From Paludibacteraceae bacterium (GTDB lineage Bacteria > Bacteroidota > Bacteroidia > Bacteroidales > Paludibacteraceae), in the NCBI GenBank assembly GCA_045589755.1, contig JAZNPR010000010.1, positions 11,439-75,438 on the forward strand: DNA of 64,000 nucleotides, given 5' to 3'. Each line of letters begins with the position of its first letter. Position 1 is the stretch's first letter. Under the pieces are notes generated by a model. That model made no database searches, was not told where the DNA came from, and worked only from the letters and a program-made list of their open reading frames with translations. Both the position numbers and the translations under genes were made by a program. This document shows positions 41,696 through 64,000 of the stretch, in pieces.

Positions 41696-41719
41696 TAGCG
41701 GATTTTTATTTGAAAGGTA

Positions 41720-46153: not shown

Positions 46154-46196
46154 ATCATTAAAATTTTGTACTCGTATACAGTTGACACTATATATT

Positions 46197-46250: not shown

Positions 46251-46288
46251 GTTGTTATGGTTGTTGACTAAGATAATTCTTGTTGTTT

Positions 46289-46681
46289 TTATTCCTGCTC
46301 TTTCGCTTGGGTGTATAGTACATGGAATATATACCCGTATAGTGTGGTGATTACTGGCTTGCGGCGCGATGAATAGGGCAAATGTTCATTGGAGGCAGCG
46401 GGTCGTTTATACGATGGATTATGCTTGTTTGTGTATGCAGCGAACTCTTTCTCCCACATGGCGCGTTTCTCCATATCCGCCATTTCGGCGTATGCTTGTT
46501 TGGAGATTTGACCAAAAAGCGACGAGTTGCGTTTTTGTGTTTCCGATGGTGGTTGCTCATTAGGGTGTGCAATCACGTATGCATGGGTGCGACCATTGCG
46601 CATGCGGTAGATCACTTGCTGGTGTTTAGATATCGCTCCAGCCACCGCCGCTACAGGAGCATCAAGAAGAATCTTTGCCAT
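46289..46681 (-). CDS. small basic protein, paralog family copy 4
   Basis: 130 aa. N-terminus APVAAVAGAISK, central PPSETQKRNSSLFGQISKQAY, C-terminus TLYGYIFHVLY. Same architecture as the other three copies. Confidence 0.5.
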   Translation of the reverse strand: MAKILLDAPVAAVAGAISKHQQVIYRMRNGRTHAYVIAHPNEQPPSETQKRNSSLFGQISKQAYAEMADMEKRAMWEKEFAAYTNKHNPSYKRPAASNEHLPYSSRRKPVITTLYGYIFHVLYTQAKEQE

Positions 46682-46752
46682 GATTGTTATGTTGTTGATC
46701 CGATTGTTTATATTGTTGTTTTATAATAGTTGTCTCTGTTGTCTTTATCCCT

Positions 46753-47181
46753 ATTTCAGTTTGCATATTTATTTTGTTTAGGGTTGCTAATGCGCAATGC
46801 GCATTCTTTCAACCCAAACAAAATAATCTCCTTGATTTTTATTTATTTTTGTAGCCCTCACAGAGGGCGTATTTTTGTTTCAAAAAAACATCCTTGAATT
46901 GACAAGAATTGACAACCCAATTGATGCCAATTGTCTTAATACTCACCCCGTTTCCCGCTTTTATATATTTCAGTTTGTATATTCATTTTGTTTGGGGTTG
47001 CTAATGCGCGTTGCGCATTCTTTCAACCCAAACAAAATAATCTCCTTGATTTTTATTTATTTTTGTAGCCCTCACAGAGGGCGTATTTTTGTTTCAAAAA
47101 AAACATCCTTGAATTGACAAGAATTGACAACCCAATTGACGCCAATTGTCTTACTAATCACCCTGTTTTACGCTTTCGCCT
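46753..47181. repeat. 2 x ~214-bp tandem direct repeat in the divergent control region
   Basis: Copy 1 is 46753-46966 and copy 2 is 46967-~47181, well over 90 percent identical by eye. Each copy carries a 12-13-bp stem (ttttgttt.gggtt / aacccaaacaaaa) enclosing the palindrome aatgcgca-a-tgcgcatt, the hairpin gccctc-aca-gagggc, and the direct words gaattgacaa x2 and ccaattg x2. Confidence 0.9.
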
Positions 47182-47374: not shown

Positions 47375-47573
47375 AAATCGCCTACTAAAATGATAGAAGC
47401 ACCTCCTATCCCCCCACTCTCTATTGGCTGTTTTGTGCACGGCGGTGGTCCGCCGTGTAACCAACTTTGCATGAAACACCCTCTTTTGCTACTTCGACTT
47501 TACAAAATGAAAATAAATGGGGGGGGTAAAATGCTTATTGGGATGTTTAATTGCAAAATTCATATATTTTTTG

Positions 47574-47581
47574 TACCTTTG
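47574..47581 (+). promoter_or_regulatory. -7 box TACCTTTG for cassette 1
   Basis: Exact match ~80 nt upstream of the ATG at 47660. Confidence 0.5.
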
Positions 47582-47659
47582 CACAATTTATAGTGTCTTT
47601 AGTTGAAAAGACTTTTATACGAGTATAAAAAATAGTAGAATTTGATAAAACAACCATAC

Positions 47660-48139
47660 ATGAAACAACTGCACAACACATGGAATTTCATTCACCGACT
47701 CTGGTATAGAGCCGAATATGTCTCCGTGATATGCCTAATGTTGTGGCTATCTGTGCCTACTCAGGCACAAGTGTACTCTACTGCGCGATACTCTACTGCG
47801 CAAACCTACACATACGATATGCCATACGATGCCTACGACGCACAGTTTGGGGAAACGCAAGTGGAGCCCAACAATTATCAGCCCTATCGCTCGACTATCT
47901 ATGAGCCATTCAGCAATGCCAAACCTACTGGACCCCAACGCGGTGGTGCGATTGGCGAGGAGGAAGATGATGACGACAATTCAGAAGACGATTGGGTGGG
48001 CGATTTCGGTCACCCCAGTGACCCTAACCAGTCACAGAACAGCCCTGTAGGCGACGCTTGGGTGCTGCTACTTTTTGCAGCCGTTGCCGCAGGAGTGGTA
48101 TATAAGAAACAACGAACATTAACAACGAAAACATTATAA
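47660..48139 (+). CDS. small secreted/anchored protein with C-terminal SPVGD-TM-basic tail (cassette 1)
   Basis: ATG at 47660 (the track ORF starts at an upstream TTG). Signal-peptide-like VICLMLWLSVPTQAQ, an acidic run EEEDDDDNSEDD, and the tail NSPVGDAWVLLLFAAVAAGVVYKKQRTL. Lies 6 nt before the giant gene. Confidence 0.65.
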   Translation: MKQLHNTWNFIHRLWYRAEYVSVICLMLWLSVPTQAQVYSTARYSTAQTYTYDMPYDAYDAQFGETQVEPNNYQPYRSTIYEPFSNAKPTGPQRGGAIGEEEDDDDNSEDDWVGDFGHPSDPNQSQNSPVGDAWVLLLFAAVAAGVVYKKQRTLTTKTL

Positions 48140-48145
48140 AGCAAT

Positions 48146-51100
48146 ATGAAACACAATATACTCAAATCGCTCTTCATCGCAGCCATTTTCATGGCTGGAA
48201 CAACTAATGTATGGGCAGAGAAAGGATTTTTCGAAAGTGGACAATGGGATGTGTACTATTGGAACGGAAGCAATGACAAATGGGCTGGTTCTCATAACGA
48301 TGGTAGCACCTATGATTTAGGCATCCAAACGACTCTTTACTTAAAACAAGGCTGGGTAAAAACTTGGTCTAATAATAGTTGGACACAATCTGAAGTTGTA
48401 TGGTATTGGGGGTGGAATGACAACTATAGCAACAATTGGAAAACAAACAAGAGCAACGTACAGGGAGATCAAACATGGGATTTTGACATTAACGACTACG
48501 ACATGATTGGTAACGCCCCCAACAATCCTGGTCACAACACATTGTGCATGTATTGGCGATTAGATAATTACGTATCTTCAAAAGCAAGTTATATCAACTT
48601 CACCATCCCTGGTTTTACAACTACAAGCGCAAGCCAAACATTTGATAACACTACCGTTGGTAGCAGCAGTTCAAAAACAATTTCGTTTGGTACACACTAT
48701 GGAACAGCGTTAAAAACATCAAACTGCTCTATTGCGGGAACTAATGCATCGGAGTTTACGGTAACAAGCATAAACGAATCAGGCGTTACTGTTACGTTCA
48801 ATCCAACATCAGCAGGAAACAAGACAGCTACACTAACTATCACAGATGCACACAGCAAGAAATGTACTATTACACTAAGTGCTAAAACCCAATACACGGT
48901 AACTTATTCAAAAGGCAACTACGGAACAGGAAACAACGTAACCGATAACAAAGTATATGGTACAGCTTTGACCCTCAAAGATAAAGGTAACTTCACTCGT
49001 GAACATTACACACAAACAGCTTGGAATACTAATGCAAATGGTACAGGAGGAACATCGTATGCTTTGAAAGCGAGTTATACACAAGAAGCAGCCCTGCAAC
49101 TTTATCCAACTTGGACTCCAATAGAATACCAAATTACCTACCACCACATTGACGGTGCCACACACACAAACCCCACCTCTTACACTGTAGAGACGCCTAC
49201 TTTCACCCTGCAAGCGCCTACTAAAGAGCTCTATACCTTTGAGGGCTGGTATCAGCAAGCAGATTTCAGCGGGGATAAGGTGACCCAAATCACCGAAGGC
49301 ACTACAGGCAACATCGACCTCTATGCCAAATGGTCAGAGACCAAATACTCCGTAAATATCTACTCCAACAATAGCCATTATGGTATCACCACTCCCAGCG
49401 GAGCTAATTGGGTAGGTCCTACTCCTGTAGAAATCACCGCTATCCCTCATAACGGCTATCGCTTTACCCATTGGACTACCACAGGCGGCGCTTCGATTGC
49501 CGATCCGAACAGCGCAACCACCACTATCACAGCTACCGCTACGGGTACAGTCCTCGCCCACTTCGTGGAGAGCCTCTTCCCCATTACCGTTCAGTCGTCC
49601 AACATCGCTCACGGCAAAGTTACCCAATCCGCCACACAAGCAGGCGTAAGCACCGCCATCACTATCACCGCAGACCCAATAGAGGGATTTGAGTTCACTG
49701 GTTGGAGCAAAGATGGCGACATCACTATCGCCAATATCAATAGCGCAACTACTACCCTCACCGCTACAGGTGAAGGTACCGTCACCGCAAACTTCGCACC
49801 AAAAGGTAGTACGCCTATTTATTTCAGAGCAAATCACGCATGGACAGCATCTAAGGCGTGGTTTGCTGTGTATTATTGGGAAACTGGCAAAGACCCAGGT
49901 TGGAGTGTACTCAATCCTATTTGCGGTAATGACTACTACAAAGCCGAAGTACCCGCTGGATATACAGGATTTAAGTTCGTGCGTTTCAGACCTTCAACAG
50001 CTGATGGATATAACTCTGATAATGGTGGTCTGAACTGGACTAATCCATGGAATCAATCAGGCGATCTTGTCGTGCCTACCGATGGAAAGACTATGTTTGA
50101 TACCAAGAAAGTATATCTCAAGCCCAATGACAAATGGAAAACGGATAATATGCGTTTTGCGGCATACTTCTATGTATCAAGCAATGATAGCAAAAACAAG
50201 TGGATGAACATGGAATTAACAAGCATAGATGGCGTATATTCATGTGATATTCCTACCGAATACGAAAGTGCTGATGACTACAACCATGTTATCTTCTGCC
50301 GCATGGATCCAAGCAAAGAAGAAAACAATTGGGACAACTGCAAGAATCAATCAGATAACTTTAAGTTATTTAGCACTGAGAGTGGAACTTTCGACAAGAA
50401 CTGCTTTACCTTATGGAACGACCAATGGGGTAACAAAAGCCAACCTGCCACGGGCTACTGGTCCCTCGTCAACGACGAAGCTACCTACGACGTAACACTC
50501 TACTCTTGTTCGTTTGGTGAGTATGGCTTTATCTACAATAACGTAGAGTACACCTCTCCCGAATCTGGCAATATCACCTACCAAATACCTATCAATGCGA
50601 CTGTCAAAGTGTTTAGCAGACCTTATAGCAAGGAGTACCGCGGAGATGTGATGGTAAACCAATCTGGTACCAAATGGGAAATCACACCAGACAACCCTCT
50701 GCTCAACATTACTTGCAACACTATCCTCGACGACAACTACAAGACTACTGGCGAACACGAAGTGTATCTGGCAGTGCCTAATAACAGTGGTTCATGGGTA
50801 ACGAATGAAGCTACACTCCACTACCTCTACGCTTTCCACGACCGAACAGAATCGGGGCAAGGCATACCCGTTCAGATGACCGAAGTAGGACACGCAAATG
50901 TCGAATTAAATTCACAAAACGTGGACCACATCTACTATCGCTGCGTAATCCCTGCGGAAGTCAATACTATCCGCTTCGAAAAACGCTCTAACGCTACAAC
51001 TACTGTTCTCAGTACCATCGACCTGCGCTACGACATTCCGCTTAATAGCGTAAACTGCTACCGACTCGATAGAAAAGAAGATGCAAATAGCAACCAAAGT

Positions 51101-53461
51101 TACGCAGGCGTTTGGGAGCAAGCCCCAGGCTTCGGCGGCGACTTCCGTCTTGTACATCACCGCGCGAGTGGTGTGACATACACCTCTGACGTTATCCGCC
51201 ATGGCACAATATCGCAAGTAGTGAGTATGCACATCTACCCTGTGGATGCAAATGCTGGGTACCCCAAACTGGAACTCCAACAATGTGTCAATGGTAATTG
51301 GGTAACCGTAAGCGGACAAACCAAACTGGTGAAGGACATCAACAAAATTATGAACGACCAACAAGACAATGGTTGCGGTGTATGGAACTTTACCGTCACT
51401 ACCGATGGCGGCGACAAAGCCGAGGTGAAGTTCAGCACCCCACAACGCTACACGGGCAACTACTATATCCGCACCAACAATGCCGAAGGCGAATGGCGCA
51501 ACTATACCCTCAGCACCAACCACATGACCTTCTCATCCTACGCTAAGAACCATAGCGAATATACCCACTATTTCTGCCGTTACATAGATGTTATAGATAA
51601 TAGCAAAGTACCAGGTCACAACAAGAACGTGAAGTTTATCATCGCCAACGATTATGCAGCTGTTCTCTCCAACGAGATGACTGGCGACGAACATACCACC
51701 TCAGGCGGTGACCTTCCTGAGAGTGCTAACGTGCGCTGGACATGGAACGAAGTGACCAACACAGTCTCCCGCGCGTATATATTAGGTTCGCACGGAAGCT
51801 ATGACCATATCGTTGCAAATGGCAATCGTCTCAACGACCAAGAAGACTGGATATATGAGATTGACATTAAGAATGTAACCAAGGGAACTCTGCTTGATAT
51901 TCAGGCTACATACCCTTCTACAACAAAGGACGGTGTATTGCCTCTAACCCAAACCTTTGCCGAAGACTTGGAGATGATTCACACTGATGCTGGCAACTCC
52001 AACGAATACACCGTGCGCGTAATGTACGACTTCAAGATCAACAAGACCCTCATCATGCTCCTACCCGATCAAGCTGATCCTGCCAATATCGGTGTGGATG
52101 TGCTCATTGACCGCACCGACCAAGGCGAAGCAACACAAGTACAATCTACAGTTACAAGCAACAAGGGCTACACCGTATATTCTACCCTGACGCTGACGAA
52201 GGATCACCTGCTCGGCAATGGTACCGAATGGGAACGCCTCTACTATTGGATTTCCTTCCCATTTGATGTGCGTATCTCCGAAATCTTTGGTTTTGGCGAG
52301 TACGGCAAGCATTATATCATACAATACTACGACGGTGCCGAACGTGCTAAGAACGGTTGCTGGGCAGATAGTCCTACCTATTGGCGACAAATCACCGACA
52401 CTACCTACTCCGCGCGTAGCGAAGATGCCAATGGCGGAAACGAAGACGCCAATGGCAACCCTAACAACGGTATCCTCGTAGCCAACAAGGGTTATGTATT
52501 GGCGCTTGCACGAAACATTGCTAATAGCAATATCTTCAAACATGGCAATGAATACGTGCGCCTCTACTTCCCATCGCGAGAGAAAATCTATAGTATCAAT
52601 GGTGATATACAAAATACCTCTGTCTATCTCATGCCACACACTTGCACCATCACGCGCGAAGACCGTAATATCTACGATAGCAACTGGCATATCATAGGTG
52701 TACCTTCCTACGCAGACAAAACGCAGACACTCACACAAGACGACATGCTCTACTACTATACCTACAACACCAGCAACAATACCTATAGTGTGACTTCGGC
52801 GAAGGATGTGCAAGTAAAATTCAACTCCATGCAAGCTTATATGGTGCAGTTTGCAGGAAACATCAATTGGCAATCGACATGGGAGTTGCAACCGCAACAA
52901 ATCCTCGCACGCCGTACCGCGGAGATGCCTGACCACTACTCCCTCCGCCTCGAACTCCAACGCGATGGTCAATATGCCGACCAGACCTTTATCCAGCTGC
53001 AAGCCGAAGGCGCTACCACGGACTACGATATGAATCAAGACCTGACGAAGATCATCAACACAGGTGCAAACATCTACACCCTCGCAGGCGAGAAGCATAT
53101 CCAATTGGCTGGTAATGTGCTACCTTCTGCCAAGACAACTATCCCTGTAGGCGTACAAGTGGCTCAGGCAGGCACTTACACCTTCGCACTACCTGACGGT
53201 ACCAGTGGCATCAGTGCCACCCTTGTGGACAACCTCTCGGGCATACACACCAACCTGCTGCTGGACGGCTACACCGTCACCCTCGATGCAGGTGCCACAG
53301 AGGGTCGTTTCTATATCGTGCTCGACCCAGACCGCACTGCGACTGCTGTAGAGAACATCGGCGATGCACAAGGCGATAAGACACAGAAGTTCCTCATCGA
53401 CGGACAACTCATCATCAAGCATGATGGCATTAAGTATAACGTACAAGGCGAAAAACTTTAA
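48146..53461 (+). CDS. giant (1771 aa) secreted protein with Listeria-Bacteroides (InlB B-repeat-like) repeats, CBM-like modules and a T9SS CTD
   Basis: Signal peptide. Repeats such as YTVTYSKGNYGTG...YTQTAWNT.ANGTG, YTFEGWYQQADFSG, NGYRFTHW, EGFEFTGW. Two modules resemble starch-binding-like beta-sandwiches (IYFRANHAW..WFAVYYW; VYLKPNDKW..FAAYFYV). The tail TAVENIGDAQGDKTQKFLIDGQLIIKHDGIKYNVQGEKL is T9SS CTD-like. Confidence 0.8.
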   Translation: MKHNILKSLFIAAIFMAGTTNVWAEKGFFESGQWDVYYWNGSNDKWAGSHNDGSTYDLGIQTTLYLKQGWVKTWSNNSWTQSEVVWYWGWNDNYSNNWKTNKSNVQGDQTWDFDINDYDMIGNAPNNPGHNTLCMYWRLDNYVSSKASYINFTIPGFTTTSASQTFDNTTVGSSSSKTISFGTHYGTALKTSNCSIAGTNASEFTVTSINESGVTVTFNPTSAGNKTATLTITDAHSKKCTITLSAKTQYTVTYSKGNYGTGNNVTDNKVYGTALTLKDKGNFTREHYTQTAWNTNANGTGGTSYALKASYTQEAALQLYPTWTPIEYQITYHHIDGATHTNPTSYTVETPTFTLQAPTKELYTFEGWYQQADFSGDKVTQITEGTTGNIDLYAKWSETKYSVNIYSNNSHYGITTPSGANWVGPTPVEITAIPHNGYRFTHWTTTGGASIADPNSATTTITATATGTVLAHFVESLFPITVQSSNIAHGKVTQSATQAGVSTAITITADPIEGFEFTGWSKDGDITIANINSATTTLTATGEGTVTANFAPKGSTPIYFRANHAWTASKAWFAVYYWETGKDPGWSVLNPICGNDYYKAEVPAGYTGFKFVRFRPSTADGYNSDNGGLNWTNPWNQSGDLVVPTDGKTMFDTKKVYLKPNDKWKTDNMRFAAYFYVSSNDSKNKWMNMELTSIDGVYSCDIPTEYESADDYNHVIFCRMDPSKEENNWDNCKNQSDNFKLFSTESGTFDKNCFTLWNDQWGNKSQPATGYWSLVNDEATYDVTLYSCSFGEYGFIYNNVEYTSPESGNITYQIPINATVKVFSRPYSKEYRGDVMVNQSGTKWEITPDNPLLNITCNTILDDNYKTTGEHEVYLAVPNNSGSWVTNEATLHYLYAFHDRTESGQGIPVQMTEVGHANVELNSQNVDHIYYRCVIPAEVNTIRFEKRSNATTTVLSTIDLRYDIPLNSVNCYRLDRKEDANSNQSYAGVWEQAPGFGGDFRLVHHRASGVTYTSDVIRHGTISQVVSMHIYPVDANAGYPKLELQQCVNGNWVTVSGQTKLVKDINKIMNDQQDNGCGVWNFTVTTDGGDKAEVKFSTPQRYTGNYYIRTNNAEGEWRNYTLSTNHMTFSSYAKNHSEYTHYFCRYIDVIDNSKVPGHNKNVKFIIANDYAAVLSNEMTGDEHTTSGGDLPESANVRWTWNEVTNTVSRAYILGSHGSYDHIVANGNRLNDQEDWIYEIDIKNVTKGTLLDIQATYPSTTKDGVLPLTQTFAEDLEMIHTDAGNSNEYTVRVMYDFKINKTLIMLLPDQADPANIGVDVLIDRTDQGEATQVQSTVTSNKGYTVYSTLTLTKDHLLGNGTEWERLYYWISFPFDVRISEIFGFGEYGKHYIIQYYDGAERAKNGCWADSPTYWRQITDTTYSARSEDANGGNEDANGNPNNGILVANKGYVLALARNIANSNIFKHGNEYVRLYFPSREKIYSINGDIQNTSVYLMPHTCTITREDRNIYDSNWHIIGVPSYADKTQTLTQDDMLYYYTYNTSNNTYSVTSAKDVQVKFNSMQAYMVQFAGNINWQSTWELQPQQILARRTAEMPDHYSLRLELQRDGQYADQTFIQLQAEGATTDYDMNQDLTKIINTGANIYTLAGEKHIQLAGNVLPSAKTTIPVGVQVAQAGTYTFALPDGTSGISATLVDNLSGIHTNLLLDGYTVTLDAGATEGRFYIVLDPDRTATAVENIGDAQGDKTQKFLIDGQLIIKHDGIKYNVQGEKL

Positions 53462-53465
53462 GGCA

Positions 53466-56400
53466 ATGAAAAAACTTCTTCTAATCATAGCAGCGGCGAT
53501 ACTATCCCTCGCCCTCATCCAAGCCCAAACAACCGATGGTTACCTCACCAGTGGTGATATTGTAAGTATTAGGTTTAGTTATCCTAACTGGAACATAAAC
53601 AATATGTACCTACAACTCTCCCAACAAGGTATAGGTTCGATTGGTTATCCTGACGAAAACTGCTTGTGGCGTCTGGGTATTGTGGAGAATGGCAATAGTT
53701 ATCAATACACTTTCGAGCATGTCGCTACTGGACTGTACCTTAGAACACAGACCACATCTGCACTGCAAACTGCCGATATCGTAACAGGTAATGCGAGTAA
53801 TAGAACAGCATTCAGATTTGATTGTACAGAAAGAGTCAAGGATAGTTATTTGAGAGGACAATTGGGCTGTGTAATTGTGATACCATCATGGGGAAATGCA
53901 CAAGTATTTGCTTGTTTGACTTCAACCAATGGTTTGCTGCAATTCTGTCCATGGAATCAATTTGACGTATATATTGAGAAATGGACACAATCAGGTTCGG
54001 GTGATGGCACCTTAAAAGGATATTTCTCGCCTGAGTTGCAGAAGTTTGGTTTGGCTAAAGACGATGCCGCAGCACAAGCACAGGCGAAAGACGTTAAGTT
54101 TGTATTCCCAACCCATATCCACTCATCCTTCCACTGTGTCAATCGTCCCGAATTGGTATTGGGTGGCTCGGAAGAAGAGGTTACCACTTTCCCTACACCT
54201 ACCTTCTATTGGAAATCCCAAGGCAAGAACGGCAACAAGATCTCAGTACTTAACCCTGCCAATTATCAAGTACCTGCAGGTGCGCCTGCTATTGAAGGGC
54301 GCAATATGCTTCAGGTGAACACACCTACACAAGACGCAAACGACAACAACATCTGGAACTTCACCATCACGCCACTCAATAAAAGCCCCAAAAACCTCCA
54401 ACACAAAGATAAATACGGTACCTATCGTTGGGTAAACTATATGGACACCCTGGTAGCAGAATACACCTACGACGGTAAAAACTACGCAATAGAAATGCTC
54501 GTGGAGCGCAATTCCTACCACGAAGAGGAATTGCCATCGCTTGTTATTTCGGTTAACCCTCATAGTTATACTTTTGCTCGAACTGCCGAGACGCTAAACA
54601 TTCAAGTAACAGCCGTGCACCAACATGGTACAGTAGTCTATGACGTAGAAGGCAATGCGGTAGAAACTATCTATGCCGATAGCATTACCCCTAACCCAGC
54701 CCAACTATCAACGATAAATGGCAACGGCTGGACAACCACGTTAGAAATAGATTATGGTAGTGGAGAACAAGATTGGATTACCAGTCCTCAAGTCGTTGAT
54801 AACAACACTATTCGGGTTGCAGTGCCAGATCACAACGGCAACAAACGCTCTGCTGTATTGAAAGGCACATTAACTGAAGATACACGACATGGGCATGAAG
54901 GCACGTTCGAGGTGCAACTCCACCAACGCGGTAAGGAAGGAGGAATACAATTCATCACTCAACCTGGTTTTGGTGCATCCGACTCACTTAAGAATATATG
55001 GGGCAACCGCAAGGATCCGCAACCTGTTCACACTGCCGAGCGTACGATTTATTATACCAAAGGACAACAGATCGAACTGAAACTCGCTGAGTCGGGCTTC
55101 TCTGGCTATATGCGTTGGTACGACTACGAAACAGGCGGCAACCCACACTACAACGACCGACATGGTGCAAACTACCCATCTACCGACTGGCACACACAAC
55201 CTCGCACTGCCAATGGTCATTGGTTCGTGAATATTAACACACCACAAAATAGTACAACTGTTAGTGACGAAGGCTACTCATACGGATTATATGCACTGCA
55301 CAAAAATGCCAAAGACAAAGCGGGTCGCCAACTATCAGCCAATCTGGGTGCAATATTGGATGAAACATATAAGACCAACGACCGTCTCGCTCAGCCTGCA
55401 CCTATCCTCTATGGTTGGAACTATACCTACAATGCCAACGCAGCTACCCCAGATGATAAACGTGCTGCGGGCTACCACACCATGGCATGCGATGTGAGCG
55501 CATATACCGATTATACTATCTGGACAAGTCAAAATGGAGCACGTATAGATAGTATCAAAGAGCCCACACTTTCCTATCGCCAACTCTTCCACCTCAAGCC
55601 AGCAGAAGAGATAGCGGATAAGTTTGCAGCATTAGCTGAAAACGAATACCTCGAGGAGTACCACTATATGGCACCTGTCGGACCAGACGTATATCTATCC
55701 ACCGAGTTCCGCCATGCTGCTAAACAACCTGAGACGGAGAAATGTTACTTCTATTGGAAAGACGGAGTGAAAAATGGCACCTTACTTCGTGTGAATGGCA
55801 CTGCGCGTTGGTATGACCAAAATGGCAACAATATTACCCCTGGCACCTATAACGCCAAGGACTATCTGGACGTGGATGCCCAATCACCTGGCACTAAAAC
55901 CTACTACCTACGCGTACCTAATGCTTTCGGAACAGGACAACACTTAAACATTGCCAAGTTTACCGTAGAGTTTATGCACGCTAACGCTTGTGGTCCATCT
56001 GCTGGACTGATCTCTATGGAGCAAATACGCGCACAATATAAGGTGTTAGAGTATATCGACTTTAGTTTTGGAGCCCCAGCACCTGGTACAGACAACGAAC
56101 GTGCATTGCGCACACCTCTCCCTTGGACGTATGCGACCTACGGATTTGTCTATCCAAGCGACATCAATGGCGATGGAAATGCGGACTATGTACGTGGTGA
56201 TAGCCAAGGTGAGTTCCCATACTTCGGCGAGTACCGATTGGTAAACAAAGTTAATAAGAACTTCGGCGGAGATGCAGGTGTTAGTGGCGATAATCACGGT
56301 GGCGCAGCCAACGGATATGCCATGTATGTGGACGGAACCATGGAACCTGGTATGGTGGCAAGTATCTCTACCAAAGCAGTCATCTGCTCCGCTCAGACAA

Positions 56401-59400
56401 TGTATTGCTCCATGTGGTTACGCAACCCAAGCTCCACCGCACACAGCGGTGCGTTGCCTATCTTCCGTTGCAATATCCAAGGACGCAAGAAGACAGACCA
56501 AAAAGATGCACAGGGAAAAACTATCTATACCGAATGGGAAGATGCAGGAGTGTTCTTCGTGGGAAGTATTGATAAAAACTCTGGCTGGAGACAGATTCTC
56601 TTCCCTGTCAATTCGGCGAACAACTACGACGAGACACGCGTATCGCTCTACAACTTCGCTACCGACAACATGGCGAACGACTTCATGATTGACGACATCT
56701 GCCTCTTTGTATCGCAATTGCCATTTGCTGCCTATCAAGGTAAAATGGCATGTCGTACTACCGCTGATAGCAAGACAAACGCCGTGGCTGTGCTCCGTCT
56801 TGACTACAGCAATATCGACAAGGATAACGATGGTTATATGTACTACCAAGTATATAATGAGAACCTCAAAACAGCCGTCAACCTCTCTGGCGATGCAGCC
56901 TACTACCACGAAGCCCATCAAGGCGACCATACAGCAGAAACCTACTATGGTTCCGTAGCAATACCCGAGCAAAGCTACAAACCAACTACGTACTACCAAT
57001 CTGTCACTAAGTTCTTGGACGACCTGATGGCAAGTGGCGAAAAAAACGGTATTGCCTATGTACGTGTAGTGAACGAAGGTATTGATAAGTATCTACTCTA
57101 TGTAGGACATATCATTGAGAATACAGATGCTCCTAATAAAGCAGGCGAATTGCTCTACTCGGGACACGAATATACGCTGCGTATGGCACATACACCCAAC
57201 GAGTTGGACAAAGCAGAGTGCAATATGCGTACACCACTCCACGCAACGCAAGCCACTTACTTCCAATTAGATGATTCCGAAGAAAACTACTGGGACGACA
57301 TCCAGTCCACTTCCTATGACCATTGCGCGAACCAACTCTATTTCCTTACCTCGAAAATCAAGAATAGTTTAGCACTGAATGCTGGTGGAGATATAGAGAA
57401 TTTAGTAGCACCTATTCAATCCGACTGGCTTGTGCTATACGATACATGGAAGGAAATCAATGTATATGCCGAAGCAGTACCTACGGATAATGAAGAACTA
57501 AAAGATTACAACGCACGTTTGGCTGTAGCCGACACCCTCTTCAAACAGAAATATACCTACACGCGCGGACAGATAGCCAATGCTATCCTCCACGACATGC
57601 GACGCATACCTACCGCGGACGACCCTAACCCCAACTACTATGCACGCTCATTCAAGGAATTGGATCCTAACCATTTCCAGACCCATGCTAACTATCAAAT
57701 CATCAAGCACCTGTGCGACAATGATTGGCTGGAGATGCACAAGACCACAACTTTCTTCTTCCTCGGCGCACAAGATACTACTCGCTACTTGGTTTATCCG
57801 ATAGAAGGAACAGCCGAAGCGAAAATGAGTAATGGTACTTCTGTCGTCCTCAAAGACTGTAAGGAAGAGCGCTACGTAGCTATCAGTTCGATGGATTGGG
57901 CATACCACCTCAACGCAACACCTATCCCACACGAGGAGAAAACAGCCCACGAGAGTATGCAATTGCCGACCGTGAAAGTGCTACTCGACAATATCCACAA
58001 TGTGCAAATACCTATCACCGACCTCTTTACTGATAATGATACGCATATTAAGATTGGTGGCAAGGCATACACCCACGGCGCGACGATTACCATTGACCTG
58101 AGCAATTTGCCCGCCTACATGACCTATATGGATATGAATACGGGTAAACCTATGAACAAGCCAACACTTGAAGTCGGCAAAGAATATACTCTCCGACTGC
58201 AATACAACAACGCAAACGATAGCCCTACCAATGATGCTAATAGCGATAAAGCTAAGGATGGCAAATGCCCTGTGGGCTATGTGTTCTTCCACCTACTAGT
58301 AATCCCTAACACTATGGTATGGACACCAGAAGGAGCATCATTCAACGGTTGGGGCAAGAACGAGAACTGGCGCGGATGGAAGGACACCAATGGCAACGCC
58401 ATCATTGATGAGGATGAACTCACCGAGGGCTATGTACCTATCAGCGGCTCCGATGTCATCGTTCCTAAACTTGACAACTCGGCCCTTTATCCATACATCG
58501 TACCAGAGGAGGAGCACAACCACTATGAGATGACCATCAACTTCGACCCACACCACTGCCGAAACATCTACTTCCAAGTAGGAGCACAAATCAATAACCA
58601 GCACATGCTCCACTACGAGAAAGCCTTTGTGGATATGTACGTTCCTGCTGCCAAATGGAACATGATGGCATCACCACTCCAAGAAGTATATTCTGGCGAT
58701 ATATTCATACCACACACCTCCTATGGCATGGTTGAGAATCCCGAACCATTTGAGATAGCCGCATGGGAAGGAAAACGCTATAGCGATGCACCATACGCCT
58801 TCTGGCAAGCACACTTCAACAAGACCGTCACTACCCATTACAGCTCAGGCGCTACGACCACCGCACTATCCAGCAATACCGCCGAGTTTGCACAAACCAA
58901 TAGCCTCGACGTACTACTCGAACCAGGTACAGGCTTCCAACTACAGGGATATGGCCCTAATAACAACGCATCCGACTCCCTCATTGTGCGCCTACCTAAG
59001 AACGATAACCAATACTTCTACTACTCCTCTCGTGGCGAGCAGACCGACCGCTATGCCACCATCCCTCGCACCAGCAACACGGGCAAACTGGCATACGATA
59101 ATAGAAGTACTAACGGCGAGAAAACCATCGTCCTACGTGGCGAAGAAGAATCCAACTACTTCGTCTTTGGTAACCCAACCATGGCATACATCGACTTGGT
59201 ATCTTTCATGGAAACGAACAAAGACATTAAAGCGGTTTACCAAATGAGCAGCAACACGTGGTTGGCAAACACCGACCTCTCTATGTACCAAACAGCCGAC
59301 CGCTATCTGGCACCTACACGCTCTATTCTCGTAGAGGTGGAAAATAGCAGTACCACTCTGACGCTGACCCTCAAGCCTGAGCATCTCACACTAACCAACC

Positions 59401-60179
59401 TTTCTCCAAAGGCAGAGGCAGAGCGAAGAAATGAACGCCGACGCACACCAAGCGTTGACAACAACGATACCCACCTAATGACTATCTACGCCTTCAACAC
59501 CAAAGGTATTGCACGTAGCATAGTAGCATACAACGAATATGCCAACAACGACTACCAACAAGGCGAAGATGCACTCTTCCTATCCACAGGTATCGACACC
59601 AAGGCAGAGACCAATACTCCAACATCGCCTATCAACCTCTACTCGCTACACAACCGCGTACCAATGATGGTGGATATGCGCGAAAACATCGATACTATCC
59701 CACTGGGAATGCTCGTGAGCCCTAACCACCGCACCGCAAAAATGCAGATGGCATTCTACCTCTCACAAGATTGGGACAAGACGTGCTACCTCTATGATGC
59801 ACAAACCAATACCAGTACACGTATCATGGACGGACTCTTGCTCACATTGGACATGCCATTCAACCACGAGAATCGCTATTATATCGTTGGTCCTGACCGC
59901 ACTTCCAACGGCGAAGATATTGTGACTAATCTTCCGAACGTTAATCAGGGCGATATACACGTTTGGGCATACTCCGAGCAAGCGGGCAATATCACAGTCT
60001 GCTCCAACGATATTATCCAGTCGGTAACCGTATATGACATCACAGGTCGCCTTGTGGGGCATAAGACCCTCGACTTGCTCTATAATCAGGTATCGTTACC
60101 AGTAGGTCAAGGTGTACATATCGCCGAAGTTACCCTCCGCGACAACTCCAAACACTACACCCGCGCTATTGTCAAATAA
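53466..60179 (+). CDS. giant (2237 aa) T9SS-secreted protein, function unknown (paralog of 61198..)
   Basis: The start MKKLLLIIAAAILSLALIQAQ is 4 nt after the upstream stop. The C-terminal ...ITVCSNDIIQSVTVYDITGRLVGHKTLDLLYNQVSLPVGQGVHIAEVTLRDNSKHYTRAIVK is a T9SS type-A CTD. There is an internal jelly-roll-like signature NDFMIDDICLF. I recognise no catalytic motif. Confidence 0.8.
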   Translation: MKKLLLIIAAAILSLALIQAQTTDGYLTSGDIVSIRFSYPNWNINNMYLQLSQQGIGSIGYPDENCLWRLGIVENGNSYQYTFEHVATGLYLRTQTTSALQTADIVTGNASNRTAFRFDCTERVKDSYLRGQLGCVIVIPSWGNAQVFACLTSTNGLLQFCPWNQFDVYIEKWTQSGSGDGTLKGYFSPELQKFGLAKDDAAAQAQAKDVKFVFPTHIHSSFHCVNRPELVLGGSEEEVTTFPTPTFYWKSQGKNGNKISVLNPANYQVPAGAPAIEGRNMLQVNTPTQDANDNNIWNFTITPLNKSPKNLQHKDKYGTYRWVNYMDTLVAEYTYDGKNYAIEMLVERNSYHEEELPSLVISVNPHSYTFARTAETLNIQVTAVHQHGTVVYDVEGNAVETIYADSITPNPAQLSTINGNGWTTTLEIDYGSGEQDWITSPQVVDNNTIRVAVPDHNGNKRSAVLKGTLTEDTRHGHEGTFEVQLHQRGKEGGIQFITQPGFGASDSLKNIWGNRKDPQPVHTAERTIYYTKGQQIELKLAESGFSGYMRWYDYETGGNPHYNDRHGANYPSTDWHTQPRTANGHWFVNINTPQNSTTVSDEGYSYGLYALHKNAKDKAGRQLSANLGAILDETYKTNDRLAQPAPILYGWNYTYNANAATPDDKRAAGYHTMACDVSAYTDYTIWTSQNGARIDSIKEPTLSYRQLFHLKPAEEIADKFAALAENEYLEEYHYMAPVGPDVYLSTEFRHAAKQPETEKCYFYWKDGVKNGTLLRVNGTARWYDQNGNNITPGTYNAKDYLDVDAQSPGTKTYYLRVPNAFGTGQHLNIAKFTVEFMHANACGPSAGLISMEQIRAQYKVLEYIDFSFGAPAPGTDNERALRTPLPWTYATYGFVYPSDINGDGNADYVRGDSQGEFPYFGEYRLVNKVNKNFGGDAGVSGDNHGGAANGYAMYVDGTMEPGMVASISTKAVICSAQTMYCSMWLRNPSSTAHSGALPIFRCNIQGRKKTDQKDAQGKTIYTEWEDAGVFFVGSIDKNSGWRQILFPVNSANNYDETRVSLYNFATDNMANDFMIDDICLFVSQLPFAAYQGKMACRTTADSKTNAVAVLRLDYSNIDKDNDGYMYYQVYNENLKTAVNLSGDAAYYHEAHQGDHTAETYYGSVAIPEQSYKPTTYYQSVTKFLDDLMASGEKNGIAYVRVVNEGIDKYLLYVGHIIENTDAPNKAGELLYSGHEYTLRMAHTPNELDKAECNMRTPLHATQATYFQLDDSEENYWDDIQSTSYDHCANQLYFLTSKIKNSLALNAGGDIENLVAPIQSDWLVLYDTWKEINVYAEAVPTDNEELKDYNARLAVADTLFKQKYTYTRGQIANAILHDMRRIPTADDPNPNYYARSFKELDPNHFQTHANYQIIKHLCDNDWLEMHKTTTFFFLGAQDTTRYLVYPIEGTAEAKMSNGTSVVLKDCKEERYVAISSMDWAYHLNATPIPHEEKTAHESMQLPTVKVLLDNIHNVQIPITDLFTDNDTHIKIGGKAYTHGATITIDLSNLPAYMTYMDMNTGKPMNKPTLEVGKEYTLRLQYNNANDSPTNDANSDKAKDGKCPVGYVFFHLLVIPNTMVWTPEGASFNGWGKNENWRGWKDTNGNAIIDEDELTEGYVPISGSDVIVPKLDNSALYPYIVPEEEHNHYEMTINFDPHHCRNIYFQVGAQINNQHMLHYEKAFVDMYVPAAKWNMMASPLQEVYSGDIFIPHTSYGMVENPEPFEIAAWEGKRYSDAPYAFWQAHFNKTVTTHYSSGATTTALSSNTAEFAQTNSLDVLLEPGTGFQLQGYGPNNNASDSLIVRLPKNDNQYFYYSSRGEQTDRYATIPRTSNTGKLAYDNRSTNGEKTIVLRGEEESNYFVFGNPTMAYIDLVSFMETNKDIKAVYQMSSNTWLANTDLSMYQTADRYLAPTRSILVEVENSSTTLTLTLKPEHLTLTNLSPKAEAERRNERRRTPSVDNNDTHLMTIYAFNTKGIARSIVAYNEYANNDYQQGEDALFLSTGIDTKAETNTPTSPINLYSLHNRVPMMVDMRENIDTIPLGMLVSPNHRTAKMQMAFYLSQDWDKTCYLYDAQTNTSTRIMDGLLLTLDMPFNHENRYYIVGPDRTSNGEDIVTNLPNVNQGDIHVWAYSEQAGNITVCSNDIIQSVTVYDITGRLVGHKTLDLLYNQVSLPVGQGVHIAEVTLRDNSKHYTRAIVK

Positions 60180-60192
60180 TCGGTAGCCCCCT

Positions 60193-60233
60193 AAAAAAAA
60201 GCCACTTTGTCTTTTCAACAAAGTGGCTTTTTT
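60193..60233. terminator. strong bidirectional rho-independent terminator
   Basis: aaaaaaaaGCCACTTTGTcttttcaACAAAGTGGCtttttt: a 10-bp stem with flanking A and T runs. Confidence 0.85.
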
Positions 60234-60235
60234 AT

Positions 60236-60338
60236 TCCTTGCCGCGGCAGGGAGTGCGGGGGCCCCGAAAAAGCCTCCTGCTTTTTGGGGTGCTTTTGAT
60301 TGCCGCGGAATGTTGTCTATGTTGTTTTCTTACCCAAC
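60236..60338 (+). repeat. 103-bp direct repeat copy A
   Basis: tccttgccgcggcagggagtgcgggggccccgaaaaagcctcctgctttttggggtgcttttgattgccgcggaatgttgtctatgttgt... Outer stem CCGCGGCA/TGCCGCGG, inner stem ccccgaaaaagc/gctttttgggg. Confidence 0.9.
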
Positions 60339-60387
60339 TGACTCCTTGTTTCCGTGTCCATCCGTGTCATCCGTGGGCGGTTATATC

Positions 60388-60490
60388 TCCTTGCCGCGGC
60401 AGGGAGTGCGGGGCCCCCGAAAAAGCCTCCTGCTTTTTGGGGTGCTTTTGATTGCCGCGGAATGTTGTCTATGTTGTCTTCTTAACCAAC
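60388..60490 (+). repeat. 103-bp direct repeat copy B
   Basis: Near-identical to copy A (period 152 bp). The differences are ggggg/cccc versus gggg/ccccc plus two substitutions near the end. Confidence 0.9.
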
Positions 60491-60671
60491 CGCATTCCTT
60501 GTTTTTGGTTGGGATAGTTTAGATTTCTGCCCATTAGGGCAAGGATACATTTAGTGTCAATACGAATATACATTTCTTAAAAAATGTTGCAAAATCCATA
60601 AGAAATGTGATGTTTTGCCAAAATGAAACACTTATTTGCTGCCATAAAACATAGTTTTAGGGAAAAAGCAG

Positions 60672-60679
60672 TACTTTTG
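60672..60679 (+). promoter_or_regulatory. -7 box TACTTTTG for cassette 2
   Basis: Exact TAnnTTTG match 24 nt upstream of the ATG at 60703. Confidence 0.5.
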
Positions 60680-60702
60680 CACGGAATTTCGGATTTTCCA
60701 AA

Positions 60703-61185
60703 ATGTTTGAACCAACAACTACATATACTCCTATCACTTCTTCTGCTTTAACAAGCAGTAAGAGTATCATGACGAGCAACCACTCGTCATCGTTTGTGGT
60801 GAGTACCAGTTTGGGTAGCAGTTTCAATAGTCACTCATCATCGACAGTTGCTCCTATCTCGGTACGTACATCGGATAAGACGATTCGTTCCTTCTCGACG
60901 GGTGGCGTATATGAGTATGTTATTCCTAAGGGTGTAGGTTCGTTTGTGAGGATGCATCGGGATAACGTAACGCTAAACTCATACGGTTCTGGCGTTCAAC
61001 CGCCGCGTCGCTCAATAGCGTTCCCTGGAGAAGACTACGAAACACCACCTACAGGTGAGTTGGATCCAGATTTTGCGAGTCCAGTAGGTGATGTATTGTT
61101 GCCAATGCTGTTGATGGCATTTGTGTATGCCACTATTCGTTTTTTTAAGAATCGTAAACTTCAAAAATCGATAAATAATCAGTAA
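60703..61185 (+). CDS. small protein with C-terminal SPVGD-TM-basic tail (cassette 2)
   Basis: 160 aa with a Ser/Thr-rich N-terminal half and no obvious signal peptide. The C-terminal half aligns with 47660..48139 (P-x-R..I..GE(E/D)...DP.F.SPVGD). The tail is ASPVGDVLLPMLLMAFVYATIRFFKNRKL. Lies 12 nt before the next giant gene. Confidence 0.65.
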   Translation: MFEPTTTYTPITSSALTSSKSIMTSNHSSSFVVSTSLGSSFNSHSSSTVAPISVRTSDKTIRSFSTGGVYEYVIPKGVGSFVRMHRDNVTLNSYGSGVQPPRRSIAFPGEDYETPPTGELDPDFASPVGDVLLPMLLMAFVYATIRFFKNRKLQKSINNQ

Positions 61186-61197
61186 ATTCCTATCCCA

Positions 61198-64000
61198 ATG
61201 ATGAAAAGATATTTTTACATTCTACTCTTATGCGCGTGCGCGTTGTTCGTTTTTGTTGGTAATGCTGCTGCACAGATAAAAAGTGACGATATCGTTACGA
61301 TTAGTTATAAAGTGACTGATCGAAATGGTAATGTTACCTCTAACTACTTATGTGCTGATGGCACCAGCATAAATGACAAATCTACATATGATGAATCTTG
61401 TCTGTGGAAAATAGCGATTTCAGGGACAAATTATTCGTTCCAAAATGTTAAGACCCCAACATATAATTTGTACACTTACAAAAGTGGAAATACATATAGT
61501 TTAACATTAGGAGAGAATGCTTCTAGTTTTACCTTTAATGGAAGTAATGTAAACAATGTGGCGCAAGGTACCTTGTCTTATAAGTATAATAATAGTACGA
61601 GGTATATTAGATTCTCTAACAATCGTTTTCAAATGAGCAGTACCTCCACAACTCTTACCATCGAAAAATGGACTCGTGTTGAAACGAAGGGTAATGTTGT
61701 GTGTACTCCTTCGCAATCGTCACATACTTTTACTGGTTTTATAGAAGATGCAACATTATCAGAGAATGCAACGATAACGGTCAAGGTGGAGCGAGAAGCA
61801 GCAGAAGCGTATTATCAAAACATGAATAATACTACCCAGAAAATTGAGATTACTTCATCTGGTTCTACGGAAGTAACTCAGCCAACTATCGACCGTGCAT
61901 CTGCGATATGGGTATCTAGCAATAATTCCACTTCAAGTGCGACATGTGCCGTATATGGAGAGGAAACAAAGAAGCATTCACTGTTGTCTGTAGGAGCGCC
62001 GACTGCTAAAGGTAATAATACTTGGGAATTTCCTATTTCAACCATAGGGAAGAGCCCTATGGAAATGACGACTGACGATAGTAAGTGGGCAGACTATTCT
62101 GACATGATTCGATTTGCATTCCATGATAAGGAAACAGATGCAACATATTATGCCAATATAACAGTAGCACGATATTCATTTCATGAGGAAGAGTTGCCCA
62201 ATTTTGTTGTAAAGACGGAACCATCATCAGTAGTATTTACCAAAGGTGGCGGAAATAAATCACTAAAGATAACCCTTACTCATCAGCATGGTAAGCTGGT
62301 TCGTCATATGCATGGCAACATATCTGACAACACTTCGGATTACACAAAAGAGGTGGGTGTAACAAAAGAGGAGTTGACTGATTTGAGTTTTGCTACCTTC
62401 AGCGCTAAAAAAGTAACGGATGAGACAGCATCAGAATGGTTGACAGTAGGAACAATAGCTGCAGATGGTACACTTACCTTAAGTGCGCCCGCAAATGATA
62501 CGGGTGGAATGCGCACCGCACGATTGGTGGGTTTGTTTAATTATACCAATCCTTTAGACCCTTCAGATCAACACTATGAGTATATTGAAATGCAGGTTAC
62601 TCAAAACGCGAAAGATGGTAATTGGAAATTAATTCCAAACAAGGGACACTCTGGTGATAATTTTGTTAAAAACCCATATACGAAATCCGATCAGCAACAA
62701 GTGCATACTGTTGAAAAAACAATATACTACACACCTAATCAAGCCGAAATAGAGCTTCGCCTAACAGAAACAGCGTTCCGAGGTTATATGCGATGGTACG
62801 ATTATCAAACCGGATGTAATCCCGTTTATAATGCTGACGCGAATCAACGTACTACATGGCAAACAGCACCTGGATATGGTACTACTACTAACTTTACCGA
62901 AATAAATACCACAGAAGGGGATTCGTATGGACTATATGCGGTGGTAAATAACAAAGGAAATATTACTAATCCCAATACACCAAGATTAAAAGGGTGGGCT
63001 GATGGTCAGCCACATATCATGGCTTGTGATGTGAGTTCACACAAGGATTATACCGTTGATAATACGAATCAGACAATTACAGAACCTACGCTTTCTTATC
63101 GTCAACTATTCCATTTGCGTCCAGCTGCGGAGATGGCTGATAAATTTAAGGCGGCTGCTAGTATAACAGATGGCAGTCAGTTCTTAGAGAATTACGAGTA
63201 CACAGCCCCAAGTGGTAAGACGGTAATGCTTTCCACACAATTTAGGTACAAATCGTTTACAAAACCTCGTAACTCACATAGTTCCGAGTTCTGCTACTAT
63301 TACTATAAAAACGGTACTAGTGGCGAATTGGGGCAAGTGGGCGTAACTGCAGATGTAACTGCTAAATGGTACAAGGTAAATGGCGCGACACTAACGGAAG
63401 TGGAAAATCCAACATACCCTACCTTCGACTATCTGCAAATTGCAGGTCAGGCGGCAAATACGGAGGCTGAGTATCAGCTGATTGTCTCTGGTGTACATGG
63501 AGGAAAAGACTTAAAAATTGCACGCTTTGTAGTCAAGTTTGTGGATATTAACACACATGGTCCGGTGAATTCGATAATGACTCAGGCAGATATTGCTGCG
63601 AGGTATCAAATTCTTGAGTATAATGATTTTAGTTTTGGCGCAGCTGCTCCTGGCACAGGGAATATGACACATCTATACAAACATTTGCCTTGGGAGGAAA
63701 GTACATATGGTTATTTTTACCCCACCAATGTGGCTAATGAATGTGATAGGCAGAATACGGACATCCCATATTATGGTGAATACGCCCTAATAAATTACTA
63801 CAGTAAAAACTGGGCGGGTGGTGCTCAACATGGTGGTGCAGACAAAGGTTATGCGCTATTTGTGGATGGAACGACGGAACCTGGCTTGGTGGCAAGTATT
63901 TCTACCGATGCGGTAATCTGCTCGGGCCAAACATTATACTGCTCGGTTTGGCTGATGAACCCTCGTAAGAATAACCAAGGTGGAACACCTCCTGTTTTCC
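61198..64000 (+). CDS. giant secreted protein, 5' part only (runs off the window), paralog of 53466..60179
   Basis: Not on the ORF track because it has no stop in the window. My translation from ATG 61198 is open to position 63999: MMKRYFYILLLCACALFVFVGNAAAQ... Blocks shared with the 2237-aa protein include EKTIYYTPNQAEIELRLTETAFRGYMRWYDYQTGCNPVYN, EPTLSYRQLFHLRPAAEMADKF, ILEYNDFSFGAAAPGTGN and FVDGTTEPGLVASISTDAVICSGQTLYCSVWLMNP. Confidence 0.8.
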   Translation, partial: MMKRYFYILLLCACALFVFVGNAAAQIKSDDIVTISYKVTDRNGNVTSNYLCADGTSINDKSTYDESCLWKIAISGTNYSFQNVKTPTYNLYTYKSGNTYSLTLGENASSFTFNGSNVNNVAQGTLSYKYNNSTRYIRFSNNRFQMSSTSTTLTIEKWTRVETKGNVVCTPSQSSHTFTGFIEDATLSENATITVKVEREAAEAYYQNMNNTTQKIEITSSGSTEVTQPTIDRASAIWVSSNNSTSSATCAVYGEETKKHSLLSVGAPTAKGNNTWEFPISTIGKSPMEMTTDDSKWADYSDMIRFAFHDKETDATYYANITVARYSFHEEELPNFVVKTEPSSVVFTKGGGNKSLKITLTHQHGKLVRHMHGNISDNTSDYTKEVGVTKEELTDLSFATFSAKKVTDETASEWLTVGTIAADGTLTLSAPANDTGGMRTARLVGLFNYTNPLDPSDQHYEYIEMQVTQNAKDGNWKLIPNKGHSGDNFVKNPYTKSDQQQVHTVEKTIYYTPNQAEIELRLTETAFRGYMRWYDYQTGCNPVYNADANQRTTWQTAPGYGTTTNFTEINTTEGDSYGLYAVVNNKGNITNPNTPRLKGWADGQPHIMACDVSSHKDYTVDNTNQTITEPTLSYRQLFHLRPAAEMADKFKAAASITDGSQFLENYEYTAPSGKTVMLSTQFRYKSFTKPRNSHSSEFCYYYYKNGTSGELGQVGVTADVTAKWYKVNGATLTEVENPTYPTFDYLQIAGQAANTEAEYQLIVSGVHGGKDLKIARFVVKFVDINTHGPVNSIMTQADIAARYQILEYNDFSFGAAAPGTGNMTHLYKHLPWEESTYGYFYPTNVANECDRQNTDIPYYGEYALINYYSKNWAGGAQHGGADKGYALFVDGTTEPGLVASISTDAVICSGQTLYCSVWLMNPRKNNQGGTPPVF

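Follow-up and report, generated by a model that had tools for sequence, protein, structure and literature searches.

A two-gene module of a small P-x-G-D-tailed protein and a giant, putatively type IX-secreted surface protein in gut Paludibacteraceae

PEP-CTERM/exosortase and related CTERM sorting systems have reportedly been described by Haft et al. in 2006 and 2012, and extended signal peptide regions are found on very large autotransporter and two-partner-secretion proteins. For the secretion system of type IX (T9SS), cargo proteins whose C-terminal domain (CTD) is of type B have clustered, cognate PorP/SprF partners, as in SprB-SprF of Flavobacterium johnsoniae and PG1035-PorP of P. gingivalis (PMC9143113, PMC10202324), and a 2023 review of T9SS effectors gives the type A CTD as necessary and sufficient, with cognate clustered partners reported for type B cargo only (PMC10202324). 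Mutants of F. johnsoniae in the exosortase gene xrtF behave like T9SS mutants in surface colonisation, and the substrates of XrtF are unknown (PMC10936215). Here we analysed a 64,000-nt stretch of a Paludibacteraceae genome (contig JAZNPR010000010.1, positions 11,439 to 75,438; termed the window), in which two tandem cassettes encode small proteins followed by giant ones: small1, giant A and giant B in cassette 1, and small2 and giant B′ in cassette 2 (Table 1). The small gene and the giant constitute a real two-gene module. We assign a probability of roughly 0.5 to the reading that the small protein is a cargo-specific membrane partner of its giant, for handling, export or surface retention.

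The arrangement resembles that of type B cargo and PorP/SprF in that a large, putatively T9SS-exported surface protein is encoded beside an accessory gene specific to that cargo, with a separate partner for every paralogous cargo. Unlike PorP/SprF, which is an outer-membrane beta-barrel, the partner here is a predicted single-pass protein of 110-230 aa with a disordered ectodomain, and unlike in the type B systems the cargo carries a type A CTD. The giants and the small proteins gave no match to the type B CTD (TIGR04131) or the PorP/SprF family in NCBIfam and Pfam. No description of these families, nor of a signal for the exosortase family XrtX (see below), was found in the literature.

The linkage of the small gene to the giant was examined in 77 loci retrieved from a genome collection with a giant-B profile, containing roughly 78 evaluable giant-B homologs, some close relatives among them. 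All of the data, including the window, derive from metagenome-assembled genomes (MAGs), and the 77 loci belong almost entirely to Paludibacteraceae and uncultured Bacteroidales from ruminant and human guts. A small gene was located directly 5′ of the giant for about 61 of the roughly 78 homologs, 29 of them with a 4-nt ATGA overlap between the two genes, and several loci had a gap of 95-270 nt. This adjacency was retained at 27-90% identity and across unrelated chromosomal contexts. The two genes were fused in frame in 6 loci, namely L059, L078 and the group L015/L023/L069/L070, which stand for three or more lineages; the order was always tail helix, basic loop and then an intact Sec signal peptide belonging to the giant itself. 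The fusions are not assembly errors, as they were matched by nine protein clusters of 2281-2289 aa, each assembled independently. The gene order was reversed in five deep-branch loci (L057, L077, L082, L087 and L088), where the small gene was immediately 3′ of the giant; three of the five carried a complete giant with no upstream small gene, and the N-terminus of the giant was off the contig in L077 and L087.

The small proteins end in a common tail consisting of P-[VI]-G-D, a helix of ~15 residues (LLP[LM]L...Y) and a Lys/Arg cluster, from which searches in the reverse direction were performed. A scan of metagenomes for P[VI]GD[VM][LV]LP[ML]L yielded 21 loci; in the evaluable ones, with one exception, the small gene preceded a sequence that starts with a signal peptide and the N-terminal GDxVTIS characteristic of giant-B-type proteins. 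A tail profile search of 1.84 billion representative proteins yielded 262 matches; all but 3 of the best 150 were shorter than 240 aa, with the match at the extreme C-terminus. Among members of this wider family of at least 100 aa, a signal-peptide-like segment was present at the N-terminus in 53/120 (~44%, by hydropathy heuristic). One signal-peptide-bearing tail protein (L112, 8001-8393) is encoded 34 nt 3′ of a giant-A-type protein of 1863 aa, and therefore one tail family pairs with at least two unrelated giant families. Taken together, the linkage and the reverse search from the tail indicate a real two-gene module. The original prediction had considered the repeated order of small and giant gene a functional unit and not chance adjacency, and named a lack of conservation among relatives as evidence to the contrary; the synteny comparison found the adjacency conserved, and the ATGA overlaps, fusions and order reversal in the about 78 homologous loci, together with the reverse search, bear the claim out.

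In L044, the frame ahead of the giant's MKKHILL start (9779-9990) looks like a frameshifted remnant of a small gene when compared with the intact relative L035. Six contigs with Bacteroidales-type cassettes were labelled Acidaminococcaceae, Dialister, Azospirillum, Firmicutes, Bacteroides uniformis and Clostridium 'cleanbin' (L049, L051, L057, L058, L061 and L063), and were probably mis-binned.

The close coupling of the two genes could also be explained by an action of the small open reading frame (ORF) in cis, as a translationally coupled leader whose hydrophobic end forms a hairpin with the giant's signal peptide and aids membrane or Sec targeting of the long nascent chain. The 29 ATGA overlaps agree with such a leader, as do the disordered and hypervariable small part and the fusions, in which tail helix, basic loop and signal peptide form a predicted helical hairpin. 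The fused variants are similar to the extended signal peptides mentioned above in having an N-terminal extension ahead of the Sec signal peptide, but the extension measures 110-240 aa, has a hydrophobic helix of its own, mostly exists as a polypeptide by itself and in some loci is encoded 3′ of the giant. Because the small gene can be downstream, as in at least 6 loci, or 95-270 nt away, we regard the leader function as improbable. The helix is moreover located ~10-25 residues from the stop codon and would still be in the ribosome tunnel at termination, and the position-specific conservation of the tail (PxGD, P, Y) exceeds the need of hydrophobic targeting. Two other candidates were rejected: an arrest peptide or secretion monitor like SecM or MifM, as the hydrophobic segment is C-terminal, 10-25 residues before the stop codon, and an immunity protein of a polymorphic toxin, as there is no toxin domain and the small gene is usually upstream.

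Neither small1 nor small2 generated a family match in Pfam and NCBIfam scans. Small1 contains a signal peptide (residues 1-36, cleaved between TQA and Q; signal-peptide calls were made with hydropathy heuristics), an acidic low-complexity region and the tail SPVGD-AWVLLLFAAVAAGVVY-KKQR (nt 48044-48139), with the helix given by PVGD-AW...LLLFAAVAA. It has 15 homologs, none of them named, and orthologous loci always place small1 directly 5′ of giant A. Small2 has a Ser/Thr-rich N-terminal part without signal peptide, a GSFVRMHRDNV motif and the tail SPVGD-VLLPMLLMAFVYATI-RFFKNRK (nt 61081-61185), and its 180 homologs, again none named, all have lengths of 117-234 aa. In a single pairwise comparison the two proteins were alike over the last 28 residues only (E = 4e-4), and the homology that had been claimed for them holds for this part and not for the remainder. 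Tail statistics were compiled from 63 distinct small proteins encoded next to giant-B homologs. In their N-terminal portions these are hypervariable and Ser/Thr-rich, with recurrence of the short motifs G-T-x-S-F-x-x-I-H-x-E-V (25/63) and S-T-S-A-Y (9/63). In the tail, P was invariant (63/63) and followed by V, I or M, G (62/63) and D (52/63); the helix contained an internal P in 62/63 and Y in 55/63, and ended with K/R in 56/63, followed by the basic cluster. The net charge was -2.3 before and +4.7 after the helix. The succession of P-x-G-D, short helix and basic tail looks like an undescribed sorting signal.

Giant B and giant B′ showed 37% identity over 751 aa (E = 3e-129), and the shared blocks GYMRWYDY, EPTLSYRQLFHL and VDGT.EPG that the original prediction quoted for these paralogs are all present. 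Giant A was unrelated to giant B in pairwise comparison; thus, the giants are paralogs as far as B and B′ are concerned, not giant A. Full-length B′, as seen in a strain with a 99% identical small2, comprises 2151 aa and is followed by housekeeping genes. All three giants begin with typical Sec signal peptides; that of giant B is cleaved between AQ and Q, and cleavage of B and B′ leaves an N-terminal Gln. The giant-B family consists of proteins of ~2150-2500 aa in at least 84 clusters at 36-90% identity, with genomic homologs down to 26%, and has no Pfam or NCBIfam assignment. Against PDB sequences, neither the giant-B profile nor giant A produced a usable match, an exact look-up of giant B of the window in public assemblies came back empty, and no catalytic motif or enzyme family was detected among the five window proteins in Pfam and NCBIfam. 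In these searches the giants joined no characterised adhesin or enzyme family, in accordance with the original prediction, which had named such a placement as evidence against the functional unit.

Structures were predicted with AlphaFold2 (AF2) and compared using Foldseek. For the N-terminal domain, a fused homolog was modelled and gave a beta-trefoil like those of ricin-B lectins (target TM-score about 0.6); this domain is followed by an Ig region with a weak BACON match. The model of the conserved core (residues 497-1095; predicted local distance difference test score (pLDDT) 75, predicted TM-score (pTM) 0.77) matched other structures in a jelly roll only, namely carbohydrate-binding modules CBM16/22/4/61 and meprin MAM at E about 1e-5, and residues ~500-920 of the core model gave no Foldseek match. 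The predicted-structure assignments span about one third of giant B and, in giant A, nothing beyond the repeats described below. In the C-termini of ten diverse homologs, the T9SS type A CTD model TIGR04183 was the top match in 10/10 and above the cut-off in 4 (28.6-33 bits); giant B of the window reached 20.3 bits, below the cut-off of 23. No T9SS machinery gene (SprA/Sov, PorV, PorU, GldKLMN) was located in the window. We read the giant-B family most readily as lectin-like giant adhesins of the cell surface and as cargo of the T9SS.

The charge on either side of the helix, the geometry of the fusions and the presence of signal peptides in some family members suggest that the small proteins are probably oriented N-out, C-in, like a C-terminal sorting signal. 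They had initially been called tail-anchored, which probably assigns the wrong topology. Small1 is not tail-anchored in the strict sense because it has a cleavable signal peptide. Small2 shows two features of a tail anchor, the absence of a signal peptide and a single transmembrane segment near the C-terminus, but its charge flanks and the order in the fusions predict N-out.

In the mechanism that we favour, small gene and giant would be transcribed from one promoter, with translation often coupled via the ATGA overlap. The giant, a non-enzymatic lectin-like surface protein rich in beta-type domains, many of which follow one another, would be exported by means of its Sec signal peptide and type A CTD, and the single-pass small protein (110-230 aa) would reside in the inner membrane, with the disordered part facing the periplasm and the basic end the cytoplasm. 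The variable ectodomain may recognise the cognate giant, and the conserved tail may serve for docking to a shared machine in the membrane or for processing by it; an exosortase-family enzyme, single in these genomes, is the best candidate for this machine. In this way the small protein would assist its giant adhesin, as an accessory factor specific to that cargo, in handling, export or retention at the surface. Several observations weigh against such a partner. Signal peptides were absent from the giant-B-linked small proteins (0/63), and therefore the N-out topology needs unusual N-tail translocation. The AF2 model of a fused homolog gave a disordered small part (pLDDT <40). Some giants have no small gene of their own, namely giant B of the window and its orthologs, which are located behind small1 and giant A, and the giants of L021, L022 and L029; thus, the partner is not strictly required in cis. 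Finally, other large surface proteins in these loci have no such partner.

The missing signal peptides and the single hydrophobic segment at the C-terminus of the giant-B-linked members could instead point to genuine tail-anchored proteins with a cytoplasmic N-terminal part and a regulatory role, for example in signalling to a membrane AraC protein, not in handling of the giant. As predicted originally, a membrane AraC-type regulator gene is divergent from cassette 1, with about 7 predicted transmembrane segments before the helix-turn-helix (HTH) domain, and AraC homologs flank small-plus-giant cassettes in several non-orthologous contexts (L009/L010, L033, L046, L041 and L065). However, most cassettes have no AraC gene within 10 kb, the charge distribution and fusion geometry contradict an N-in orientation, and signal peptides are present in small1 and about 44% of the wider family. 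We consider a regulatory role very unlikely.

An exosortase/archaeosortase-family gene, which had been overlooked in the original prediction, is located 4 kb upstream of cassette 1. Its product scored 61.8 bits against TIGR04178 (cut-off 23), and the nearest named family was XrtX, at 80 bits and below the cut-off of 170. The motifs with Cys, Arg and His (VWSCTALKQ, FNILRI and MHTY) were invariant in 11 homologs. The gene always adjoins tsaD, and in the window it is found between nrnA and tsaD. It was within 10 kb of a giant in 11/77 loci and directly beside small-less giants in L021 and L029, where the inserted giant separates it from nrnA. Like XrtF of F. johnsoniae, whose loss phenocopies T9SS mutants, the enzyme is a Bacteroidota exosortase with unknown substrates (PMC10936215); unlike XrtF, it is closer to XrtX, though below both cut-offs, and has no visible XrtF-associated partner gene. 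The exosortase homolog is a candidate processing enzyme that may act on the small-protein tails. A 164-aa ORF at 41615-42109 (- strand) was dismissed as an exosortase partner, as it overlaps an nrnA-like DHH/DHHA1 gene (41720-42820, + strand) in antisense and is probably spurious.

A stronger claim, which overlaps with that of a cargo-specific partner, is that the tail is a true sorting signal, 'PVGD-CTERM', cleaved by the XrtX-like exosortase. The small proteins would then be disordered, probably glycosylated substrates that are moved to an envelope acceptor and form a matrix or anchor bound by the lectin domains of the cognate giant. The tripartite layout of signature, short hydrophobic helix and Arg/Lys cluster at the extreme C-terminus is that of PEP-CTERM proteins, and the similarity extends to the small, low-complexity, Ser/Thr-rich passenger. 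About 44% of the wider family carry signal peptides, and several paralogs occur per genome. As in those systems, an exosortase-family gene with intact catalytic Cys, Arg and His is present in the same genome; its proximity to giants in 11/77 loci, including the small-less ones of L021 and L029, and the T9SS-like phenotype of F. johnsoniae xrtF mutants, whose enzyme has unknown substrates (PMC10936215), also fit such a signal. Tails of the wider family produced sub-threshold matches solely to CTERM sorting-domain models (JDVT, PGAP, GVDTG, MYXO, Loki, LPXTG and PEP-CTERM), with GVDTG scoring highest (20.3 bits; cut-off 29), and the tails of the two window proteins gave no match at E <= 10 to described CTERM models, among them the PEP-, PGF-, GlyGly-, MYXO-, JDVT- and GVDTG- types. 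Unlike in PEP-CTERM systems, however, P-[VI]-G-D with LLP[LM]L thus stays below the threshold of every described CTERM model, most members, including the 63 linked to giant B, have no signal peptide, and the signal is restricted to one giant-linked small-protein family and never occurs on diverse passenger domains. The exosortase gene is locked to tsaD, so that its closeness to giants may reflect one ancestral locus. On balance we hold cleavage of the tail as a sorting signal to be a tentative and rather doubtful extension of the partner function.

Giant A consists of a signal peptide, an ASH/choice-of-anchor-D-like Ig domain (weak match), repeats and a long unannotated region. The InlB-B or Listeria-Bacteroides repeats noted in the original prediction were confirmed in giant A as Flg_new repeats at residues ~328-553 (nt 49127-49804), with scores above the cut-offs for PF09479 (48.1 bits), PF18998 (56.4 bits) and TIGR02543 (36.8 bits). 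Both complete giants had been proposed to be T9SS cargo, which is supported for the B family, with its consistent TIGR04183 matches, and not for giant A, whose last 120 aa matched no T9SS CTD in NCBIfam at E <= 1 or Pfam at E <= 5. The protein ends instead in a 40-aa tail, TAVENI...KFLIDGQLIIKHDGIKYNVQGEKL (nt 53333-53458), which is probably another sorting tail. Tails of this ~40-aa class follow the pattern TAVENI...K.IRD.QLYI...G..YN..G. In the window, a BspA-type leucine-rich-repeat surface protein of 1034 aa (19018-22122), which contains an InlB-B repeat, also closes with such a tail, as do further large proteins in L011, L019, L034, L057, L071 and L073.

The features of the locus are given in Table 1. 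The five genes of the original prediction, including the incomplete fifth one, were all found in the ORF map, and the intergenic gaps of 6 nt (small1 to giant A), 4 nt (giant A to giant B) and 12 nt (small2 to giant B′) were reproduced from the ORF coordinates. Promoters had been placed ahead of small1 and small2; both carry an exact copy of GTACYTTTGCAC, an extended Bacteroidetes -7 box (TAnnTTTG), starting at 47573 and 60671, and this motif had 10 matches in the window at <=1 mismatch against 0.68 expected. The terminator claimed after cassette 1 was recovered as a 16-bp hairpin. Cassette 1 is a variant form, in which a small protein with signal peptide and the unrelated giant A are followed by a B-type giant without its own small gene.

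Table 1. Features of the two cassettes and their surroundings (nucleotide positions in the window)
Feature	Position	Strand	Basis
Exosortase/archaeosortase-family gene	42899-43426 (probable start MKDWKK; full ORF to 43558)	-	TIGR04178
Membrane AraC-type regulator, divergent from cassette 1	44669-45787	-	Pfam HTH_18 (C-terminal); hydropathy, about 7 transmembrane segments
Two small basic proteins (113 aa, 130 aa), upstream of AraC gene, same strand	45812-46681	-	no family match
Cassette 1 promoter-like -7 box GTACCTTTGCAC	47573-47584	+	motif; 10 window matches vs 0.68 expected
Small1, 159 aa (from MKQL)	47660-48139	+	ORF
Giant A, 1771 aa	48146-53461	+	ORF
Giant B, 2237 aa (from MKKLLL)	53466-60179	+	ORF
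Giant B, beta-trefoil lectin-like domain	residues ~21-175, nt 53526-53990	+	AF2 and Foldseek on fused homolog
Giant B, BACON-like Ig region	after beta-trefoil	+	weak BACON match
Giant B, CBM/MAM-type jelly roll in conserved core	residues ~923-1083, nt 56232-56714	+	AF2 and Foldseek
Giant B, T9SS type A CTD	nt ~60003-60176	+	TIGR04183, 20.3 bits (cut-off 23)
Intrinsic terminator closing cassette 1	60195-60233	+	16-bp stem, -20.5 kcal/mol, z = -7.3
Cassette 2 promoter-like -7 box GTACTTTTGCAC	60671-60682	+	motif
Small2, 160 aa	60703-61185	+	ORF
Giant B′, leaves window at 3′ end	61198-64000	+	ORF

The cassettes are otherwise surrounded by housekeeping genes, e.g. tsaD, nrnA, priA and cysS. The 113-aa and 130-aa basic proteins upstream of the AraC gene were seen in orthologous loci only. 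The closest relative at the window locus was L043, with a 97% identical AraC protein. In L043, L110 and L111 (AraC 97% or small2 99% identical), the slot of small1, giant A and giant B holds a different small gene and a 2328-aa giant, and cassette 2 is conserved. As different cassettes occupy the same slot in these strains, cassettes are exchanged between close strains.

Repeats were observed in both spacers of the locus. In the intergenic stretch from which the 130-aa gene and small1 diverge, there are two tandem copies of a ~214-bp unit (46752-47176; identity 96% and 89%), each holding the hairpin GCCCTCACAGAGGGC followed by a T-run, and a 103-nt direct repeat with 97% identity (60236-60338 and 60388-60490) lies in the spacer from the cassette 1 terminator to the cassette 2 promoter. 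Farther away, a protein with DUF3987 and a BT4734-like N-terminal domain is encoded at 3588-5879, a combination that presumably may mark a mobile element near the window start. A gene with ABC_transp_aux and DUF7088 domains (38170-39804, - strand), in a conserved block with PPIase and ParAB genes, is one that we take to resemble gliding-associated GldG-type proteins.

Together, these new families form a module of cargo and partner and bring with them a candidate for a new sorting signal. Three families without Pfam or NCBIfam match can be defined from the alignments: giant B, the small protein and the C-terminal tail of giant A. In the T9SS review, type A cargo is said to require no more than a signal peptide and a CTD (PMC10202324). 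Retention of the partner through about 80 diverged loci, at least three independent fusions and one reversal of the order suggests that type A cargo of very large size depends on additional handling. Bacteroidota exosortases have unknown substrates, for which the tail offers a concrete candidate. Were the doubtful PVGD-CTERM signal to prove true, it would link the exosortase and type IX secretion pathways mechanistically, and its carriers would, on the same tentative premise, be the first exosortase substrates in this phylum, each dedicated to one giant T9SS adhesin. The swapping of lectin-like giants as cassettes among close strains of gut Paludibacteraceae, from ruminants and humans, is a pattern that surface proteins typically show when selection for attachment diversifies them.

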